From NCBI GenBank assembly GCA_963804955.1, contig CAWDSQ010000007.1:352001-416000 (forward strand): a stretch of 64,000 nucleotides of DNA. The letters are read 5' to 3'. Made by a program: the position numbers and the translations under genes. Below are positions 38,712-64,000 of this stretch, in pieces. How positions within the stretch are numbered: the first letter of the stretch is position 1; each line of letters starts with the position of its first letter. The notes beneath the pieces were generated by a model. It did no database searches. It was not told where the DNA came from and worked only from the letters and a program-made list of their open reading frames with translations. The DNA is from an uncultured delta proteobacterium. GTDB taxonomy: Bacteria; Desulfobacterota; WTBG01; CAIYCZ01; CAIRTM01.

Positions 38712-40155
38712 TCAACGCTTTTTTGAGAGAACAGAATCAATGGACAGATAGAATGCCTCTGTCACATTTTTCTGATATTTGCCGACGGGAACGCCATTAT
38801 AAATGACCCGCGTTTTGCCCTGCTGAAATTCCCGCGTGTACGGAATTGACCAGTCGGGGTAATCGATCTGTTCATAGACGTCATAGCCTTCAAATCCATG
38901 ATAATTTTTCAGTGCGTGATGAAACAGTGTATCTGAATTTTCTGCAAAAAACTCTATGGGCAAACCGATGACATAGTCATAGCCTTCCTTGATAGCCTGC
39001 AAATATGCCCGGTTTGTCGAAAGATATTTTTCTTTCGGGTCCCACACCGGGTCGGCGAATTCATCCTGACAGATAACAACATTGGTCCTGCCGAAGGCAT
39101 ATGATTTCAAGAGCCCTTTCACATCCTCAACAAGCTTATCGCGGTATTGCGGAGCCAGCTCAAGCCAGGCTTCCCAGCTGAAGTGATCCCACGGCATGCC
39201 ATGCACGGTCACCGCAACGGTAACACTGGAACTCTTCGGGAGGGTATCAAGCCTGTCTTTAAGCATATCTACAAAGGCCTGGCGCATCGGCTGAAATTGG
39301 CCCATGGGGGGGGCCATGATGACTTTGACTTTTTTACCCGGATGCTCGGCTTTCCACTCATTGATATATTCCATGCTGTGCCGGAAGCTTGAGTTAAACT
39401 CTTCAAAATGCGAATAGATCGGCATCGGGGCGGCAAGTACTATTGTTTCGCATCCTTCATCGAGCAATTCGAAAAGCTTTTTTTTCATATTATAGTAGTC
39501 AAGGCTGCTTTCCGCACGAAAGGCGATAGTGCTGTATTTCGAGCGGATTTTATCCAGCGCGCCGTTTATTACTTCAAATGATCCCTGCCAGTGAGGCAGT
39601 TTCTGCTGTTTTATGCCGCGGTTGTAGTACCAGATATTGGCTTTATTCATTGTTTTACCACTCAGGGAGGGCAAGCCGGCCTTATGGCCGGTAAAAAGAA
39701 AATAGCCATGATCGAGATAAATTCTCTTGGACGGCGGCTGCCAGACAACCTCCCCTTTTTTGTATTTTTCAATAAAAGGCTCACCATCTATGTCGTTGTC
39801 ATTGCCATATTGATCAACCAGGCGCGTAGGCTTAAATTCTTCGTGCTCATGATATTTAACGGCATCCAGCAGGGCTACTCCTTTATCGATCTTGGAAAAA
39901 AGCCGAAATGGCCACGGAATAATAGCATTAAAAATTTTCAAAGTTATATTATAGAAAAACGGATATTCCATTTTCTCAGGCATTATCAGGCCGGTTACAA
40001 ATATTCCGACCTTCCCTTCCGGCACACGAATCCTGTATTTTATAATATTCTTCATAATAGTCCGGCTTCTGACGCCGGTTTTTGTATTTTGCAAGGACAG
40101 TATAAAAAACCGATACGGCAATAATGAATACTACAAAGCCCAGTAGAATTTTCAT
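38712..40155 (-). CDS. membrane-anchored class II chelatase (ferrochelatase/CbiX fold)-like protein; frameshift near 40030
   Basis: An alternative-frame N-terminus MKILLGFVVFIIAVSVFY joins KVGIFVTG. Contains LLDEGCETIVLAAPMPIYS, VAVTVHGMPWD and LPIEFFAENSDTL, matching the HemH patterns P.YS, SAHSLP and PIGFVSDHLETL. Confidence 0.65.
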
Positions 40156-41153: not shown

Positions 41154-42437
41154 TTAATACGCCTGCTGGAGATACGAAATAGTAAACATGCTTTTATCAA
41201 CCTTTTCCGTCCCGACCTCATAAATTTCCTGCAGCGGAAGCGATGCATGGGTGCGCTGAAAATCCAGGAGCATAACCCCGACAATCATGTTTTTCATTTC
41301 ACCCTTCTTGGTCTTGAAGTCCGCATGGAGATATTCAAAGCACTTCCAGGGCCGTTTCAGCTCGTCATACAGTTCGGTATACAGCACTAAATAGGTCTCG
41401 GGATCAACATACCAAACCCGCTTTGAATAAATGTAATTCGGGTCTTTGCTCTTTACTTCAACCACATAGGTCGAAATCCGCTCGCGGGTTACGTTGTTCG
41501 GGATCGCCTGGCCCGGTGCACGCTGAAACATTTTAATGTCCGTATGCCGGGAGCAGAGCATTTCTTTTTTTCCGATCAGCTGATAGGTATTGCGCTGGAT
41601 ATGGCCGTCCCAGCCGTATTCATCGTCATAAATCATATCAGTGCCGTCAATGGTATCGGTGCGCTGGCCGACATTAATGCGCCTGATTCTGCGAAAGGGC
41701 GCATACCACATGTAGCCGTCATCTTCTTTATTCTTGTCAATGTAGCGCAGGTTAAAAAACCGCGAATTCTGGCTTTCCGGCGGATCGTACAGATGCAGAA
41801 ACAAGCCCCCGGTGAATGCCCTTTTCGTTTTTCGTCATATGCCGGAATCGGCTCAACATCGGTACGGTGAATCCAGTACAGCTCCCACTGGTCCTGATGC
41901 GTGGTCCGCTCTATTGCGACGCCGGGCGAAATAACCGGGCCTTTCCGCGCATAGTGGTTGGCATCGCCATGGGTGTTGAAGTCATAGTTCCAGGCGATCT
42001 CAAGCCCGTTTTTTGGATTGGGGAACGGCACGCCTGCAATTTCGGCATAGTTTACGATGTCGCCATCGGCATTCACCTTGACGATCGGGGCATACTTCTT
42101 TGTTGCCGCGATCACTCCTGTTCGTCTCAATCACCTGCGTGATAGGGGGTGATGGAAAAAAACAGGCCGTCCTTCTCGGGGCGCCCCATTTTTTCGGATC
42201 CTTGTACAGCTGAACAATCTGCTCGGGAAGAAATTGCGCGACCTGATCAATATTGCTTTTATCAATCTTCTTGCCGGCCCATGTCTTTTCCCACTCCTGA
42301 ACTTTAGCAAGCTCATCAGCCTTGTATGCTGCAACAGGATACTGCACATCCTGGGCCTGAGCTGCGCCGCAAAACAGAAACATCATGCCGGCTGCCGCTA
42401 TGGATGCTAATGATTTTTTTAATTGTTGTGCTGACAT
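41154..42437 (-). CDS. DUF1329 periplasmic protein (LolA-like lipid-sorting fold); several frameshifts
   Basis: Signal peptide, IDKSNID, GVPFPNPKNGLEIAWN, WYAPFRRIRR, GTDMIYDD and YIYSKRVWYVDPET. Confidence 0.8.
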
Positions 42438-47546: not shown

Positions 47547-47753
47547 TTATTCTTCAGTAATGGTTATCGCCTCTTCCGGGCAGGCATCACGGCATGCCAG
47601 GCACATGTGGCACATATCCTTTGCTTCCTCAATCACCTGCGCCCGCTTTTTGCCGTTATCGGTATCGACTAATGTCCAAAGCTCAAGGCCGCACATTTCA
47701 ACACATTTGCCGCAGCCGCGGCATTTAACGGGATCAACAGTATGCCTGACCAT
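47547..47753 (-). CDS. 2x[4Fe-4S] ferredoxin
   Basis: CRGCGKCVEMC and CHMCLACRDACP. Confidence 0.9.
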   Translation of the reverse strand: MVRHTVDPVKCRGCGKCVEMCGLELWTLVDTDNGKKRAQVIEEAKDMCHMCLACRDACPEEAITITEE

Positions 47754-47768
47754 AACAAAACTCCCTGT

Positions 47769-48176
47769 TCATAGTGCTGCCTTAACGGCATCAACTGCGT
47801 TTTTAAATTCCTGATCCTGCTCGTACAGCCGGACCATGGCATCAAAAAAAGGAAAAAGCGCCATGAAATGAACTGCCGTATTGGGATCGGTCTTGTCGCC
47901 TTTGATAATTTCTCCCTTTTCCCGGATCTCCATGAGGTCGTAGCTGTTGTCGATCGCGCCACACAGGTCGATATCGGTCATCGCATGGCCGCATGGCAGT
48001 CCTCGCGCATGCCGACTTTCAAGCATAACGGTGCCGTCTTTTATGACGATCGTTGTCTCATCTTTATCCAGCTTCATCCCGACTTTATGGTCCTTGAAAT
48101 CAGCCAGCATCTCCTGAGCGGCGGGGTCGGAATTCGCAAAGCGTACGCCCTGCTGAAGCACATCGATCATTGTCAT
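47769..48176 (-). CDS. SCP2 (sterol carrier protein)-like lipid-binding domain protein
   Basis: About 135 aa; TIVIKDGTV...D....ID...DLMEIREKGEIIKGD is the SCP2 pattern; GGGAG RBS. Confidence 0.55.
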   Translation of the reverse strand: MTMIDVLQQGVRFANSDPAAQEMLADFKDHKVGMKLDKDETTIVIKDGTVMLESRHARGLPCGHAMTDIDLCGAIDNSYDLMEIREKGEIIKGDKTDPNTAVHFMALFPFFDAMVRLYEQDQEFKNAVDAVKAAL

Positions 48177-48193
48177 GGCGGAAATTCTCCCTT

Positions 48194-48907
48194 TCAAAAG
48201 AAAATTTCGGGTAGCTGTTCGGAGCCAGGGCAGCGCCACATGCCTTGCCTGCGGGGCGGCAGCTGGATTTTCGAAATACTCCTTCAGCATTGTTTTGACG
48301 CACTGAATTTTCCGCTGCATCTCCTTCCGTTTTGCCGCGATCCTCCGCGGCTGCAGCGGATGCGCAATACTCAATATAGCTTTTCAGGTACTCCGTGTGG
48401 GGCGCAAGCGCGGCAAGCCGCATGCCTTCCCGCTCGATCGGGATGACGGCTGCCGTATACACTATGGAGCGCAGGCCCGCAGGTCGTCGTCCTCTTCCGG
48501 CGTTATGCCGGGCAGGCTTGCAATTTTTCCCACAGGGGGCCGAGCGGCTCGCAAATATTTCTTTCTGTACGGCTCATCAACCAGGCATGTCAACCGTCGG
48601 GATCAGGTCGACGAAAATGCCGACGCTGCTCTTGTCTTCTGTCCCAGCGGGAAAAGAATATCGGCAGTTCATAGCCCTCTGCGGGAATAATCGAGCAGAG
48701 GCCCAGGTTTGCAGACTCGTCGGGAATATTTTGCCCAAGAACAATTTTTTCAATCTTCTCGGCGGTAAAAGCCTGAATGGTTCGCGCTGCCGGGCAGTTC
48801 CGCAGCGCAATATCCCTGCCTTGTAGCTTTTTCGTCCCGGCCAGGGCAAGCGCTTCGAGAACCTCTTTCATTTTTTCAACATACGGCGTCCATGTGATCT
48901 CAGCCAT
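48194..48907 (-). CDS. ferredoxin-dependent bilin reductase / RCC reductase-like protein 3; multiple frameshifts
   Basis: IEKIVLG, SIIPAEGYELPIFFSRW, IFVDLIPTVD, EPYRKKY and EYLKSYIEY spread over several frames; paralogous to 48923..49695. Confidence 0.6.
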
Positions 48908-48922
48908 TATCCTGCCCTCCCT

Positions 48923-49695
48923 CTAGAAAATAAGACTGACGAATAGTTTCATTTTTTCCTCGCCGAAAAGCTTTTTGATCACCTCTCCGCCCGGATCAAG
49001 GTCGCGGTAGTATTTCTGCAAGGCCCGCTTTCTCGTGAGCATTTCCTGCTTATAGGCGGGATCACGGATGGGCTCGGCTTTTTTCATCATCTCAAGCCAG
49101 ACACGGGCATAGTCGACGACGGCATCAAGCACGGCGAGGCGGTCCTCGGGCTCCTCAACGCGGCCGTCAATCGGGTAGGGGAGAGGGTCGCGCGGGCCCA
49201 TGGCCACGGGGCATACCGGCTTTGCACCAGGCAGCGGCCGTCTTTGGTAAAGCCCGGGAATGGCTGCGGTATTTGCGCCACAGCATCTCGCTACGGGGTT
49301 CGAGATATTTTTTACGGTATTCCGGATGAACGGCGATATCCACGACCGGCATGAGGTCAAGGGTAATGCTGAGCCGCGGCGCGCTCTCGTCGAATTCGCA
49401 GGCCATGATCGGCAAATCATAGTCATCGCTGCAGGTAAAGTTGAGGGCGCAATACTTGGCCCTGCCCATGTAGTGGAGTTCGCCATAGGTTATTTTTTCT
49501 ATTTTGTCCGACCCTTTCAGCACAAAGGGTTTGTAAAACCCGCTGGCAAGGGGCGTCTTGAACTCCCAGGCAGGCCGCGTGTCCACGCCGCATATATGTT
49601 TCCAGCGGCTCCAGCTCCAGTCCCTCGAACATTTTTCGATTCACTACCAGTTCATCTGTAAAGCGAATCATGTCTTTGAAATCAACCCGCGCCAT
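48923..49695 (-). CDS. ferredoxin-dependent bilin reductase / RCC reductase-like protein 2; multiple frameshifts
   Basis: IEKITYG, DYDLPIMACEF, ITLDLMPVVDIAVHPEYRKKYLEP, DYARVWLEMM and YYRDLDPGGEVIKKLFGEE; GGAGG RBS. Confidence 0.75.
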
Positions 49696-49739
49696 AGGCA
49701 CTCCTCCCGCGTGAAATTGTTTGCTGCAACACTGCTCCC

Positions 49740-50025
49740 GGCTATACGATCGACCGCGCCACAAGCTCTGCGAGCATCAATAAGCTTCAGCGGTACGGCA
49801 TATTCCTGCTTCGCGTCGCTGAAATTTTCAATGCACAGCGGACATGCCGCTATCAGCACCTCAGCGCCGGTTTGAACGTCCTTGTCACGCCGTTCACGAT
49901 GCCGCTGTCAACGGGCATACTCTTTTGCCCAGACGCCCGGCCACCGGCCCCGCAGCACCAAGCGTCCCGGCAGCTGCGCTTCATCTGTATAAACCCCGCT
50001 ATGTCTTCCCGGCAGGCAGGGCGCA
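49740..50025 (-). pseudogene. remnant of a CCG-domain Fe-S oxidoreductase C-terminus
   Basis: QMKRSCRDAWCCGAGG and LIAACPLCIENFSDA in different frames; homologous to the end of 54462..55743. Confidence 0.7.
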
Positions 50026-54461: not shown

Positions 54462-55743
54462 TTAGAGTGCTTCGCGCACAAGATCTAAAATGTCATACAC
54501 TTTCATCGTTTCATTACGATCCGTAACGGCATCAAGAAAATTTCGCTCACAATGGGGACAGGCGCTCACGATCGCCTCGGCGCCCGTGGCCTGTGCCTCT
54601 GCAATCCTCTCTCCGGCAGTCCATGAGGAGAATTCCGGGTACCGTTCCCGCACCCCTGCGCCGGCGCCGCAACACCACGCATATTCCCTGTTTCTTTCCA
54701 TCTCGACGAGCTTGATACCCGGAATGCTTCTCAGTACATTCCGCGGCGTGTCATACACTACCCTGTGCTCCGTTATACCGGGGCTTGCGTGGCTCCCATA
54801 CCAGGATCTGCCCGCGAATTTTCTTCTGCTCGCCCTTCCAGGGCACATGGGGTTCTCCGCGTCTTCCCAGATGGCAGGGATCATGATAGGTGACCGTCAG
54901 GGGAACTTCTTTTGTAAATTTCAGCTTGCCTTCATTAATAAGCCGTTCAAGAAATTCCGTGATGTGAATGACCTCGAACTTATAATTTTTCAACTCATCA
55001 GGATACAGGCGCTTGAATGCATGGTAGCAATCGGAGCAGCCGGTAACCACTGTTTTTACCCCTGCAGTAGTCCAGGCTTCTTGATTATTCTCAGCATATT
55101 TGAGAAATTCCCCCCGATAGCCCATATCACAAACCCTGCCGCCGCAGCAGTTCTCATCTCGCCCCATGATGCCGAAATCAATGCCGGCATTTTTAAGCAG
55201 GCCCACCACCGTTCTGGGTATCCTCCAGAGCTCCTTATCAAAACTGTATCGACAGCCGACGTGGAACACAACTTCAGCCTTCTCCCGGGTGAGATCTTTT
55301 ACCTCCAGACCCTCGGCCCAGTTGGCGCGATCAGCCTTGGGCTCCATCATCATGTTGTCCTCCTTGCGGAGGTGCTCTATGAGGGGAATATCCTGAAACG
55401 GGAAGCAGCCTTTGTCTATCATTTCAAATCGTAATTGACGCATCACCTCTACGGGTTCCAGATCATACCGGTTAACCTTGCAGGCAACGTCACAGCACCC
55501 GTCCAGCATGCATTTGAAAACGATGTCCACCAGCCCTTCATCAAAGTAACTGCTCCTCTCCTCGAGAAGGGACAGGGACGTGCTTAATCGTCCACTGGCC
55601 GAATAGCTCTGAAACTTGTTATACTCTATGCTGGGACAGCCTTTTGCAAAGCGCCAACTCTTCACATGGGCAAGCGGGATCCATTTGCAGTATGAGCACT
55701 TGGCGCATCGTGCTGCGGTTGCCCTATAATCTTCCAGTGCCAC
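54462..55743 (-). CDS. Fe-S oxidoreductase (GlcF/HdrD-like; 4Fe-4S plus two CCG domains); frameshift near 54760
   Basis: CAKCSYC, CMLDGCCDVAC, ENCCG, TYHDPCHLGR, WCCGAGAG and SACPHC. Confidence 0.9.
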
Positions 55744-55773: not shown

Positions 55774-57289
55774 CTAAAAACAAAGCTTGCCGGGGTTCAA
55801 TACATTATTGGGATCGAATAGTGCCTTCAGCTGCTTTGACAGAGCCGTATGCTCGGGATTTCTACCATAGGCCATGTCTGACCAAATTCCGTATGGGCGG
55901 GTATAGAAGGCTCCCTGGTTTGACAGTTTTTCACTGGCCTTGGCGAACAGCCCCTGAACCATGGCTACCTCCTTCTCGTCGCCCGGATCATAGGGCAGAC
56001 TAAATTCCACATGGCAGCTTGTTCCCATGTGCGTCGGCTGAATATACATGCCCAGATCCGGTAGCGGATAGCTGGAGGCTTCCGCCAATTCGCTCATCGT
56101 CGCTGTGAACTCGGGCGCTCTGTTCAGTGTGGTGAGAAAAAAGATGTCCTGGCAGCCGCCCTTGTTGCGAAGTTTCCAGTACGGTTCTTTTGAGGGATTA
56201 AGCACTGCTTCCGCCACCTGTCCGCCTGTTGCCCCGGGAATTGCCGACTCCGGACGCACGTTACATTGCTGAGCTATATCGGTAATATCCTTTTCGAGAA
56301 ATTCAACCCGTTCCTGCGCAAGTGATGTCACGCCCGGTCACACCCAAAACGAGCGTCCACGGGGGCAACTCTTTGCGCAAGGACATAACCTGCTCAGTTT
56401 CTTCTCCCAGGAGAGACGCTAAAGCGGATCTGTTTATCAGCATTAATTCATCATGAAACCGTATCCGCAAGAGCTTATAAGCAAAGCCGATAAGAGTTTC
56501 AAGCCCATCAGCAGGCACCAGGAAAAACTTTTGAGCCTTGGGCAGCACTTCGCATCTCAGCGATGCCCAGGTGACAATACCCATGGTTCCCTGGGCTGCC
56601 GACACCAGTTTATGATAATTAAACTGCCCGGGGCCATATTGGTAGAGCGCCGTACCCTGTATTTTTTTTTGTTTTTCAAGCAGTTCTTCTATCGGGACGA
56701 GTTTCTCCTCCTCCCTGGTGGAGGTGCTGACACCGGCGCCGGCAAGCTCACCGGTCCGAAACATCTCTCCGTTGCCCATGACCGTTTCAATACACCGCAG
56801 CGGCTCATTCAGCGACCAGGCATACCGGGGGTTCGTTATCGGCTCTCGTTCCAAAACACTGCCCAGCACGGATTTAGTGGCACGCGGTTTCAATGGCATG
56901 GAAAGTCTCAGGCCTTGCTTGGCCAGTTCCGGCTGAAGCTGGCTAAAGGTCACCCCTGGCTCAATAAGAGCCACCCGGTTCCTCCGGTCCATCATGATAA
57001 TCCGCTTCATTCCGCTCAGGTCCACAATAACCGCCCCCTCTGAGGCGGGAACACTGTCGCCACGGAAGTGCGGCGGCCCTGAGCTTACCGGAACCAGCGG
57101 CGTTTTTGTCTGGTTGGCCCACTTTACTATACCCTGCACTTCATCGGCATTCTTAGGCCTTACCACCATCAGGGGCTTCCTTGACGGGACAAAGCTGTGG
57201 TCCCTGGAGTACTCATCCAATGTAGCCGGATCATCGATTACATTCTCCGCACCAACAATCTTTATGAGCTCATCTTTTTTTTCGGCCAT
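55774..57289 (-). CDS. FAD-binding oxidoreductase (GlcD/E-like); frameshift near 56320
   Basis: VVRPKNADEVQ, VDLSGMKRI, IEPGVTF, AQGTMGIVT and LFDPNNVLNPGKL. Confidence 0.88.
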
Positions 57290-60891: not shown

Positions 60892-63125
60892 TTACTGCTG
60901 AAGTTGATTTTTAGCCGCCCGGAGAACATATTTCGCCAGCAGCGGGCCAACCCCGGGATCATTATTGGGCGGTTTCCACAAGGCCCATGTCCCGGTATAT
61001 TGATTTTGTATCGGCTGATTTACATCAGGGGCTGACACGCTTTGATCATACCCCAGATGCCCCGTATTCGCAGACGTCATAGGCAAGAGAAGGATCCATG
61101 GCGCTGATCTTGGAAGTAAGTGCTGTTTGGCGCGGCGGCGGATACGGGCGCCCGTCGCTGCAGCCGCCCATTTCAAAACAGCACGGCTGTCCGCCGCAAG
61201 TCAGCATTGGCCCAGTTGCCCCAGTAATCAGCAAAGGGATGGCCTATGCCCGGATACGTTCCGGTATCTCCCGCAGCCCAATACAGCCAGTTTTTGAAGC
61301 CGATTTCTTTCGCAATCTGATTGGGTACTTCGACAAGATTCAGAACGGAATCGGTTGCAATCTGCGGAAATGCAACAACGACATGCTTTACGCCCCTGTT
61401 TTTCAAATATTCAAGGGCATCCCAGTACAAGTACCCCCATTCTCCCGAGGGTAATTGCTTAGTGCTCTGGTAGAGCCACGCATCGCCAAGATTCTCTCCG
61501 CGCATCTGCCGGGTTCTCTCAATAAGGCCATTTGCAGGGTTTAATGCTGGACGCCCCATCCAGGCGCCGATAATATTTCCCGGATTTATGCCCGGATGCT
61601 TCGCGAGCAGCTGAGATTTAATGTTCTGATTAACGATGAGCGTGTCATTGGTCTTTGGATCAAAAAATTCTTTATAATCATTAATTGGATGATTTAAAAG
61701 GATGACCCCCACATCAGCATCCGGCACATTCTGGTTTAAAACAGCTTCAATGCCCGTTACATGCATTGCGGCGAGCGCCGGATCAATGGCAACGGGATTC
61801 CCGGTGCCGTTGTCATAGGCGACGTTTGCATCTGTTGTCGGAAGGCCCAGCGTAGCGGTCCATCCGGCGGGTGCGGTGGGGAATGACCTTTCCATCAGAT
61901 TCGTGTAGTCATTTACCCAGATAAGAGGAATAGAGGTTGCATGTTCAGCATTCCACTTAGTAAGGGCCCTTTTTGACATCTGGATCACATCGTAGGTCTT
62001 TGAAAAGCGAACCCCGCCGACAACCAGATCAATGGCAATTATTTTCGTCACCCCTTGTTTCAGAAGCCGTTCCACCGGGCCATCAACATTATATCTTTGG
62101 GGATTACAGTCGGGCCAGGGCCCGCCGGGTTCCAGCTCGCCGCAATAGGTGCAGTTGTCTCCTGTGCCGGAGGGCGGCAGGTACATATACCGGGGATAGG
62201 GGTAGTGCTCGGTATCATCACCGATCATCCAGGCGGCCCAGTCATACACAAATGAAAGACCATATTCCTGGTTGAGCACTTGTTGCATGGCGTTCATTTG
62301 CTGCCTGGTGATTTCCATAAACGGGTCGGTGCCGCCAATCCGCTGATACTCGAATGCATATTTCAACATATACTGTACTGAGGTTTCCACCGTCAGAACA
62401 GCTCCCCACAATGAAGCATTATGTAAAAATAATTTATTAACCGGGTGATTCGGATCATAGGAAAATTGCTGCATGGAGGCATCCCAGACACCTTGCTGTG
62501 ACATCTCATCAAACCCGCCATGGACAACAAATAAAACACCCACCTTTTCATTACAAGCCCAATCACAGGCAGGCTGTCCGCTGCCGCCACAACCGGGCGC
62601 CGGGTCACACACATCGCCTATGCCATCACCATCGGCATCAAGCTGAGCGTAATTACAGGTGGCCGGACAATTGTCAACGTTATCAGCATAATAATCATTG
62701 TCTGTATCAACCTGCCCTTCACAGCTTGTCTGGCCGCACCCGCCGCCGCAACCGGGCGTGCTGTCGCACGCATCACCTATGCCGTCACTATCGGCATCAC
62801 GCTGAAGGGGATTGGCAATGGCCGGACAGTTATCATAATAATCAGAAATTCCGTCGGTATCTATATCAAAAGACTCGCAGACAGGCTGGCCGCAGCCGCT
62901 GACGAGGCCACAGCCGGGGGTTAGATCGCACACATCACCTGTGCCGTCCAAATCAGCATCCAGCTGAAGGGGATTGGCAATGGCCGGGCAGTTATCGATG
63001 GCATCATCAATGCCGTCACCATCACTATCGGCAGCCCATGAAACCCCCTGCCCGATAAAAATAAATAAAAATGAAGCTGCTACGGCCAGGGACTTGAGTG
63101 TTTTTCTTAGCCCGGTTTCTCTCAT
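60892..63125 (-). CDS. secreted protein: thrombospondin type-3 Ca-binding repeats plus class II chelatase-like domain; frameshifts near 61200 and 61070
   Basis: Signal peptide; D.DGDG..D..DNCP...N..Q.DAD.DG.GD.CD repeats; [29 protein letters not shown] and [24 protein letters not shown]. Confidence 0.65.
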
Positions 63126-63190
63126 AACTGGTTTCCTCCTTTTGAAAATTTATTGTTTTCGCCAAGGGGCGTTGAGCTTGAATTAAGGCC

Positions 63191-64000
63191 TTACTGCTGC
63201 AGTTTATTCTGCGCAGCCAGCAGCACATATTTAGCCAGCAGCTTGCCAACCCGGCGATTATCATTGGGCGGCGCCCACATGGCCCAGGTCCCGGTGTACT
63301 GATTTTGCACGGGCTGATTCACATCGGGAGCGGAAACGCTTTGATCATAGCCCAGGTGCCCGTACTCGCACACGTCATAGGCAAGAGAAGGATCCATGTC
63401 ACCGCGCTTGGAGCCAAGTGGCGTTTGGCGAACCGGCGGATACGGGCGTCCGTCGCTGCACCCGCCCATTTCAAAGCAGCATGCCTGTCCGCCGCAATCC
63501 GTATCGACCCAGTTGCCCCAGTACTCAGCAAAGGGATGGCCTATGCCCGGATACGCTTTGTCATCACCGGCAGCCCAATACAGCCAGTTTTTGGCGCCGA
63601 TTTCTTTGGCAATCTGATTGTGTACTTCGACAAGGTTTAAAACGGAATCGGTTATAATCTGCGGGAAGGCAACAACGATATGCTTTACCCCCCTGTTTTT
63701 CAAATATTCAAGGGCATCCCAGTATACGTACCCCCATTCTCCCGAGGGCTTTTGCTTATTGCTCTGATAGAGCCATGCATAGCCGAGGTCCTCTCCGCGC
63801 ATTGCCCGCGTTCTCTCCACCAGGCCGTTTTCGGAATTTGTTTCTTTGACCCCCATGAAAGCGCCGATAATATTTCCCGGATCCAGGTCAGGGTGCTGCT
63901 GAATCAATCGGGATTTAATGTTCTGGTTGAGAATAATTGTATCGTCAATCTTGGGATCAAAAAACTCATTATAATCATTGATCGCATGATTAAGAAGCAG
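63191..64000 (-). CDS. tandem paralog of the chelatase-like protein (5' part outside the window)
   Basis: Near-identical C-terminal region ([56 protein letters not shown]). Confidence 0.75.
   Translation of the reverse strand: MLLNHAINDYNEFFDPKIDDTIILNQNIKSRLIQQHPDLDPGNIIGAFMGVKETNSENGLVERTRAMRGEDLGYAWLYQSNKQKPSGEWGYVYWDALEYLKNRGVKHIVVAFPQIITDSVLNLVEVHNQIAKEIGAKNWLYWAAGDDKAYPGIGHPFAEYWGNWVDTDCGGQACCFEMGGCSDGRPYPPVRQTPLGSKRGDMDPSLAYDVCEYGHLGYDQSVSAPDVNQPVQNQYTGTWAMWAPPNDNRRVGKLLAKYVLLAAQNKLQQ

Follow-up and report, generated by a model that had tools for sequence, protein, structure and literature searches.

What would a protein built like a ferrochelatase do outside the cytoplasm? The question is raised by the last part (positions 60,892 to 64,000) of a 64,000-nucleotide window of contig CAWDSQ010000007.1 (C7), from the metagenome-assembled genome (MAG) GCA_963804955.1 of an uncultured delta proteobacterium (4.26 Mb in 36 contigs, 87% complete), where two tandem genes on the reverse strand, here called copy 1 and copy 2, encode large chelatase-like proteins. 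Ferrochelatase is the enzyme that inserts iron into haem. Our analysis shows a ferrochelatase scaffold in the family to which the two proteins belong, with different residues at several positions of the ferrochelatase active site. In our judgement the chance is about even that the family consists of exported tetrapyrrole-binding or metal-removing proteins, often lipid-anchored or surface-tethered; their ligand, chemistry and location (periplasm or cell surface) are what we infer from sequences and models.

Fold and putative active site

We modelled an intact paralog encoded on contig C14 of the same genome (the C14 paralog) with AlphaFold2 from a 40-sequence alignment, obtaining a pLDDT of 85.7 and a pTM of 0.87. 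A Foldseek search of the PDB with this model returned ferrochelatases at all of ranks 1-43 (E values 7e-9 to 2e-6, TM 0.59-0.74 by target), including the human, yeast, Bacillus subtilis and Listeria (CpfC) enzymes, and next after them came the haem/porphyrin protein FetB of Porphyromonas gingivalis (7e-4). Structural alignment with VIA-align gave a Z of 25.8 against CpfC/HemH, with 296-304 of about 308 residues aligned at a root-mean-square deviation of 2.6-2.8 Å; lower values were obtained for human ferrochelatase (FECH, 23.9), SirB (17.0), the periplasmic CbiK of Desulfovibrio vulgaris (CbiKP, PDB 2XVX; 15.7), FetB (PDB 9B86; 15.3) and CbiK (14.1), and the first unrelated fold was a periplasmic binding protein (1apb) at Z 10.3. 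At the sequence level, hhalign matched the family profile to nine canonical HemH sequences, drawn from genomes of the same phylum, with a probability of 82% (E = 1.2e-6, 314 columns). The original prediction of a chelatase-like, two-lobed domain therefore held up when its structure was predicted, the fold being that of ferrochelatase and not an unrelated one. Searched against the sequences of the PDB, the family alignment had given only local matches to B. subtilis ferrochelatase at the IGG motif with E~0.8, too weak alone and superseded by the fold searches.

According to the model, a complete ferrochelatase fold is embedded in a domain whose size (about 550 amino acids in copy 1) is roughly doubled by insertions, located in the C14 paralog at approximately residues 140-200, 260-300, 375-415 and 494-575. 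The whole two-lobed plan is common to the family and to HemH/CpfC (PF00762; PDB 1AK1, 6SV3, 8AW7, 1HRK), as are the pattern Y..IGG..P...T..Q, the histidine equivalent to human H263 and the glutamate at the E347 position, with FDPK as the GDP-type motif that follows the histidine. Unlike ferrochelatases, the family members are predicted to be exported, are about 580-600 rather than 310-360 amino acids long, carry the four insertions and six conserved cysteines, and score under the PF00762 and TIGR00109 cut-offs.

To compare active sites we used human numbering (SEQRES index + 64), fixed by aligning one HemH to human ferrochelatase chains that included the E343Q, E343D and E343K variants and consistent with the chain ranges of the structural alignment. 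Conservation was scored in 74 full-length members, of which 47 come from Thermodesulfobacteriota loci, 19 from gammaproteobacterial and 8 from alphaproteobacterial ones. Two histidines of the C14 paralog, His330 (the position of human H263 and B. subtilis H183) and His432, are kept in 74/74 members, and His40, at the M76/Y13 position (human M76), in 69/74, the remaining five showing gaps. The position of H341 holds Ser, Asn or Thr, that of E343 a leucine in 70/74 members (Leu446), and that of E347 the glutamate in 72/74 (Glu450). The six cysteines (180, 192, 494, 499, 500 and 506) are each found in 68-72 of the 74 members, and an alignment of 40 sequences has about 28 invariant columns, among them the charged residues R156, D258, D340, K342, D345 and R390.

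In a ferrochelatase review (PMC9133952), M76 of the human enzyme lies across from the catalytic H263, on the side that binds iron, and E343 with H341 makes up the proton-abstraction network. As judged by alignment, the family thus keeps the porphyrin-facing histidine, gains a second histidine on the metal side and has lost the acid. Since leucine takes the place of the E343-type acid, these proteins are not ordinary ferrochelatases. The histidine pair had been noted before in both lobes of copy 1 (VVHGG and LLNHP) and was expected to line a pocket; mapped onto the human enzyme, the two residues would indeed lie across the porphyrin from each other. Such a His/His geometry suggests a site suited to ligating, and perhaps extracting, a central metal.

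Table 1. Positions of the copies, of the parts of copy 1 and of the aligned active-site residues. Coordinates without a contig name refer to the window.
Feature	Coordinates	Strand	Remarks
Copy 1, predicted signal peptide	63033..63125	-	aa 1-31, ..GVSWA/ADSD; read from sequence
Copy 1, thrombospondin type-3 module, three Ca-binding repeats	62544..63032	-	aa 32-194
Copy 1, predicted ferrochelatase-fold domain, main-frame part	61173..62543	-	aa 195-650
Copy 1, Cys-rich continuation, second frame (CCFEMGGC)	61046..61234	-	ORF list
Copy 1, last ~60 codons, third frame	60892..61176	-	ORF list; homologous part from ~61055 down
Copy 2, window part (C-terminal 269 aa)	63191..64000	-	continues to C7:416995, ~995 bases past window end
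C14 paralog	C14:216818-218611		intact, 598 aa
Copy 4	C11:91898-93943		spread over three frames
C14 His40 = copy 1 His202 = human M76			VLHGG aligns with LNMGGP
C14 His330 = copy 1 His479 = human H263			LFNHP aligns with FSAHSLP
C14 Asn444 = copy 1 Ser593 = human H341			Ser in most members
C14 Leu446 = copy 1 Leu595 = human E343
C14 Glu450 = copy 1 Glu599 = human E347

The architecture of copy 1 was largely as originally described. Its main open reading frame (ORF) in the list compiled for the window encodes 650 amino acids (61173-63125, minus strand) and opens with a signal-like segment, read from the sequence, that has a hydrophobic core and an Ala-X-Ala-type cleavage site and carries neither a twin arginine nor a lipoprotein-like cysteine. 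The three thrombospondin type-3 (TSP3) repeats, with DNCP at residues 44, 98 and 151, are each followed by a PGCG..CGQ..C linker (PGCG at 70, 124 and 177); Pfam TSP_3 (PF02412) matches them in three stretches (E = 2.6e-20, 72.3 bits versus a cut-off of 25), and NCBIfam throspo3_MtsC matches at 2.5e-23, under its cut-off. As in TSP type-3 surface proteins of the MtsC type, these are canonical aspartate-rich, Ca-binding repeats; here, by contrast, they are attached N-terminally to a domain that resembles an enzyme. That domain, 56% identical to the C14 paralog, contains RIGGTDPF (residues 262-269) and His581 in addition to the histidine pair, and its residues 590-599 stand where ferrochelatase has its pi-helix motif.

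The signal peptide and TSP3/PGCG module of copy 1 match 60 other places in the genome, on many contigs and at 50-79% identity (60 of the 67 rows of matches to copy 1 fall within its residues 1-202), sometimes in arrays of three or four modules (for example C10:49450-51183). Judging from these matches, the module is a common cassette of the predicted secreted proteins of this organism and is not chelatase-specific.

Export appears to be a property of the family as a whole. We applied a heuristic to the 102 relatives with an HGG motif among the 120 listed, and 88 of them have a hydrophobic stretch at the N-terminus. No more than 45 residues precede the domain in 88/102, the other 14 having longer N-terminal add-ons; 62 of the 88 with a near-terminal domain have a cysteine at most 15 residues ahead of the first strand (..LSC, ..IAC, ..SAC and the like), at sites many of which deviate from the canonical lipobox L-[AS]-[GA]-C, and a twin-arginine-like motif occurs in one of the 102. 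Among 59 longer members, TSP_3 was found in six, at either end of the protein, and IPTL-CTERM in three, along with dockerin, PKD, Flg_new_2, Y_Y_Y, SdrD_B and CarboxypepD_reg modules, all of them surface types. These patterns support the view that the family is exported, often with a lipoprotein-like cysteine, in agreement with the extracellular or surface location first proposed for copies 1 and 2.

Reading frames, paralogs and distribution

Copy 1 (60892-63125) had been called complete; it is not, however, one open frame. Aligned at the DNA level with the tail of copy 2, which lies in a single frame and served as our reference, its tail is 91% identical and contains exactly two 1-nt insertions, one near 61200 and the other lengthening a run of G near 61058, both within the last ~110 codons. 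With the two extra bases removed, the span reads as 744 codons. The CCFEMGGC stretch, previously taken for a Cys-rich tail, is out of frame with the main ORF; in the modelled fold it is an insertion ahead of the last core helix and no tail, the helix itself being encoded, by homology, in the third-frame piece. As the aligned region extends to residues 592-597 in the model of the C14 paralog, a protein ending at 61173 would lose this core helix.

We examined both insertion sites in contigs of relatives from four sequencing runs (X1-X4), the strain itself being absent from public runs (best share of sampled words 0.27). These contigs were placed at a likeness of at least 88%, so that some may derive from paralogs or other organisms. 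At 61058-61060 a one-letter deletion was present in 11.05/11.1, 14.2/14.2 and 3.98/3.98 of the covering depth in X1, X2 and X4, respectively. At 61198-61202 the deletion accounted for 10.9 of ~13.7 in X2, 3.98/3.98 in X4 and part of the depth in X1 (5.6 of 7.6-17.3); X3 had usable cover at neither site. A 550-nt X4 contig spans 60892-61443 with 19 differing letters and exactly two gaps. Many unrelated genes nearby are also split across overlapping frames: a DUF1329 gene in three pieces, a CCG protein, a FAD oxidase and an MFS gene (window 41154-42437, 54462-55743 and 55774-57289; C7:417280-418693), and likewise an FDBR-like gene.

Since the contigs of relatives lack the extra bases, the frame breaks of copy 1 are probably assembly errors, and the like splitting of unrelated neighbours fits assembly indels. 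We rejected a programmed frameshift, both sites being simple 1-nt insertions that are missing in related contigs. That both window copies are decaying pseudogenes with real frameshifts, leaving only the C14 paralog functional, would agree with the two frame changes seen in each of copies 1, 2 and 4 (those of copy 2 within ~75 nt, C7:416,540-416,620) and with the helix missing from the shortened ORF, yet it is very unlikely: amino-acid conservation is fully kept in the downstream frames, the extra base at 61058-61060 is missing in all covering contigs and that at 61198-61202 in most, and many unrelated neighbours are broken in the same way. In an assembly that seems to carry such frequent single-base indels, annotation based on ORFs will under-call genes.

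Beyond the window end copy 2 continues, as had been anticipated; the whole gene (C7:415194-416995) encodes a signal peptide of its own and no TSP3 repeats. Its high similarity to copy 1, first noticed over the visible part, amounts to 73% identity over residues 288-645. The genome contains four paralogs rather than two: copies 1 and 2, the C14 paralog (copy 3) and copy 4 on contig C11, the last with an additional C-terminal extension of ~100 residues (C11:93167-93943), Ig/PKD-type by eye only.

The C14 paralog retrieved 632 proteins (E at most 1e-3, among 7476 candidates), the best 120 of which are 49-87% identical to it; annotated relatives are called hypothetical, with the exception of one 'protoheme ferro-lyase' from JGI, and the domain has no precomputed Pfam family. 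Among 1.84 billion representatives clustered at 50% identity, only 168 clusters match, 47 of them at E of at most 1e-30, and many are fragments. The library carries no names; of the 150 clusters listed among the 168, none could be recognised as a canonical ferrochelatase. The small number of matching clusters, with no recognisable ferrochelatase among those listed, marks the family as tight and distinct. In the ESM Atlas it falls into its own 'hypothetical protein' cluster (706 members, score 0.95), and ferrochelatase clusters score 0.83-0.84, a lead only. Narrow search terms (chlorophyll-degradation clusters, exported ferrochelatase-like proteins, DUF1838) found nothing on the family in open-access text.

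In a sample of 201 genomes across the phylum, six encode the family, with 3-7 matches each: the present genome, all four others of the same taxonomic family and the single one of another family in the same order; it was not found in the remaining 195. Contigs from one genome per species yielded 171 stretches encoding relatives, of which we kept 78 loci. All 78 come from uncultured MAGs assigned to Thermodesulfobacteriota or 'delta', to Gammaproteobacteria (including Chromatiales, Steroidobacteraceae and Ca. Foliamicus) or to Rhodospirillaceae. A midpoint-rooted FastTree of the 78 sequences, with placements given without support values, sets copy 2 beside its ortholog in a related MAG, with copy 1 as the sister lineage of this small group, and copies 3 and 4 sit in other subclades; in a related MAG (locus L072) a second, TSP3-bearing copy lies directly downstream. 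The placement makes the tandem pair an older duplication inside an old multi-copy family. The gene amplification originally proposed can thus be upheld as such, but not as a recent event.

Three related genomes contain a paralog in permuted order (G141:C37:26829-28520, G172:C167:6759-8465 and G108:C5:10639-12090), with profile positions 161-239 encoded ahead of 25-162 and then 237-578, suggestive of a variant in which the N-lobe and the first insertion are rearranged or circularly permuted.

Gene neighbourhoods

Copies 1 and 2 belong to a same-strand cluster of ~26 kb, whose window part extends from 38.7 kb upward. It encodes a 469-amino-acid ferrochelatase-like protein, Abhydrolase_5, DUF1329, DUF1302, MMPL and PSII_BNR proteins, a ferredoxin, Fe_bilin_red-like genes, ETF alpha and beta, FAD_binding_4, CCG proteins, ATC_hydrolase, SDR and esterases. 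A four-gene RND set within it resembles AmeABCD. Past the window end follow an MFS gene, a small secreted protein and a flavoprotein that is geranylgeranyl-reductase-like by eye, the matching neighbour cluster having given only generic FAD-binding Pfam matches. The C14 paralog is directly followed by a Fe_bilin_red gene (55.4 bits) and then by PNPOx-, flavin-reductase- and MFS-like genes, recognised by eye.

The Fe_bilin_red-like coding in the window (47772-49776, minus strand) possibly comprises two tandem genes, with a Pfam match only for the piece 48923-49486; it follows a small ferredoxin ORF of the 2x[4Fe-4S] type (47550-47768), and the upstream gene lies in three frames. An assignment to the pre-PcyA type of cluster was rejected, as the haem oxygenase, Fe-S protein, V4R and BBAG globins given in an excerpt of PMC10151467 do not match the neighbourhood here. 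The 469-amino-acid protein (38712-40121, minus strand) is encoded without a signal peptide and has a histidine in VTVHGMPW; it scores 26.3 bits with PF00762 against a cut-off of 27, over profile positions 102-289, and two further relatives on contig C5 score 32.7 and 22.9 bits. A canonical hemH was not found in the genome, where the best PF00762 match (32.7 bits) is a 463-amino-acid protein.

Across the 78 loci (47 from Thermodesulfobacteriota, 22 gammaproteobacterial and 9 alphaproteobacterial), neighbour counts are lower bounds, as many loci are short. FDBR-like neighbours were seen in at least 17 of the 47 Thermodesulfobacteriota loci, PNPOx in 11 and the flavoprotein cluster labelled geranylgeranyl-reductase-like in 8. 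Gammaproteobacterial loci have FAD_binding_4 (9/22) and DUF1838 (11/22), often in the order FAD_binding_4, chelatase-like gene, DUF1838, an arrangement that is tight in L098:7821-12546, L105:8226-12677 and L071:8392-12651; mentions of DUF1838 in open-access text come from antibiotic gene clusters only. Alphaproteobacterial loci have MFS genes and alpha/beta-hydrolases (6/9 each). Five of these nine (L094:7261-8241, L056, L082, L084 and L085) show a match to the Chlorophyllase family (PF07224, 60.6 bits), and in Rhodospirillaceae the esterase that carries it lies next to or near the chelatase-like gene, in a conserved island with MFS, CN_hydrolase, DUF1838, a methyltransferase and a glyoxalase. 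We looked for a universal neighbourhood and found the best neighbour cluster in only 14 of the 78 loci, so the context is clade-specific. Porphyrin-synthesis genes were not seen beside the chelatase-like genes in the neighbourhoods examined.

Possible functions

If these are indeed exported proteins that bind a tetrapyrrole or remove its metal, the following picture can be drawn. The protein would cross the inner membrane unfolded, by a Sec-dependent route, and the six conserved cysteines, four of which lie inside the insertions, would probably form disulfides or a metal site. The cleft between the lobes would bind a (metallo)tetrapyrrole between the two invariant histidines, one at the H263 position (His479 of copy 1) and the other on the opposite face, at the metal-side M76 position (His202). 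The central metal would most likely be gripped there, and might be removed, exchanged or simply ligated, after which the pigment or metal may be handed on to transporters encoded nearby. In copy 1 the TSP3 repeats would serve as a Ca-binding tether or spacer.

Several observations count against this reading. Sequence models see little of the ferrochelatase in these proteins: on copy 1, PF00762 reaches 21.0 bits (cut-off 27, residues 240-297) and TIGR00109 hemH 18.5 bits (cut-off 124.6), and the C14 paralog has no Pfam or NCBIfam match at E of at most 1; sub-threshold PF00762 scores (20.7-23.3 bits) occur in 7 of the 59 longer relatives. The four large insertions might alter the shape of the cleft or block it, and the placement of the two invariant histidines face to face is derived from homology mapping. 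FDBR-like neighbours number 0/22 in the gammaproteobacterial and 0/9 in the alphaproteobacterial loci, where FAD_binding_4, DUF1838, MFS, CN_hydrolase and a Na/Ala symporter are found instead. The PF07224 match covers only profile positions 7-133 of 301, in a stretch that also matches PETase and PAF-AH. The closest studied relative of the RND set, AmeABCD of Castellaniella defragrans, would by analogy point away from pigments, being linked to monoterpene tolerance in an excerpt of PMC6394551. Taken together, the neighbourhoods suggest a tetrapyrrole flavour that is real in one clade, suggestive in another and not universal.

The alternative that survives best is a pure binding or shuttle lipoprotein, similar to a hemophore, in which the two histidines would ligate haem iron (six-coordinate) or supply Mg with a fifth ligand and the pigment would be passed to a transporter with no metal chemistry. 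The loss of the E343 and H341 positions and the MFS or RND genes nearby are in line with this, and human E343K, which is inactive, co-purifies with protoporphyrin (PMC9133952, in excerpt). Precedents, for this alternative and for the preferred reading alike, exist in the periplasmic CbiK of D. vulgaris and FetB, exported proteins of class II chelatase fold that, according to an excerpt of PMC13065792, bind metalated porphyrins. The family shares with them this extracytoplasmic fold; unlike these proteins of the CbiK type (~260 amino acids) it is twice the size and nearer to HemH/CpfC, and the CbiK/CbiX families PF06180 and PF01903 match neither copy 1 (E of at most 0.01) nor the C14 paralog (E of at most 1). 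Conservation of an enzyme-like kind, holding across three classes, and the multiple matches per genome in distinct subclades speak against a mere carrier, which we therefore regard as possible but clearly the less probable outcome.

It is also conceivable, though doubtful, that the fold now serves a ligand other than a tetrapyrrole, such as a hydrophobic isoprenoid or some other compound on which the products of the neighbouring RND, MFS or oxidoreductase genes act. The generic gamma- and alphaproteobacterial neighbours and the monoterpenes handled by AmeABCD (PMC6394551) would suit such a ligand, and the two-lobe plan is common to periplasmic binding proteins such as 1apb. Against it, all solved proteins of the same fold at Z of at least 14 in our structural comparison act on or bind tetrapyrroles, the invariant residues stand exactly at the two porphyrin-facing positions, and FDBR-like and chlorophyllase-like genes recur as neighbours. 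A forward chelatase outside the cytoplasm, putting metal into scavenged porphyrin as FetB may do (chelatase activity and a link to Mn-protoporphyrin formation are reported for FetB in PMC13065792), would use the retained fold and catalytic histidine and suit a genome without canonical hemH, but it is improbable given the leucine in place of the pi-helix acid, the finding that even E343D impairs the human enzyme (PMC9133952) and the lack of adjoining porphyrin-synthesis genes.

Within the preferred reading, that of an exported protein that binds a tetrapyrrole or removes its metal, a more specific and rather speculative proposal is that these proteins are extracytoplasmic dechelatases. Anchored in the periplasm or at the cell surface, they would use the two facing histidines to pull Mg, Fe and perhaps Ni or Co from chlorophyll-, haem- or geoporphyrin-type pigments of the environment, and so begin an oxygen-independent route of pigment catabolism and metal scavenging. 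Its later steps would fall to the products of neighbouring genes (esterases, SDR, bilin-reductase-like and flavin reductases, transporters), with paralogs tuned to different pigments. Plant chlorophyll breakdown employs SDR, alpha/beta-hydrolases and the FDBR-family reductase RCCR, and SGR removes Mg in the plastid. The likeness to this Mg-dechelatase would be functional only, and only if the proteins are dechelatases; SGR belongs to an unrelated protein family and fold and works inside the plastid, and Pfam matched copy 1 only with TSP_3 and, below its cut-off, ferrochelatase. The relation of RCCR to FDBR is noted in an excerpt of PMC10151467.

The possible meaning of the family depends on which of these roles applies. 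Few cofactors reach sediments in amounts as large as chlorophylls and haems. To our knowledge, no bacterial oxygen-free route for their breakdown or for mining their metals has been described, and narrow searches found nothing relevant. A large and strongly conserved family whose active site appears rebuilt from His+Glu to His+His, which is predicted to be exported and is encoded near bilin-reductase-like and esterase genes, would offer an expressible candidate for the first step of a route of this kind. Were its role no more than to carry haem or porphyrin, the known exported proteins of chelatase fold, which are of the small CbiK type, would still gain a HemH/CpfC type. In either case, more than 600 'hypothetical proteins' would gain a name.

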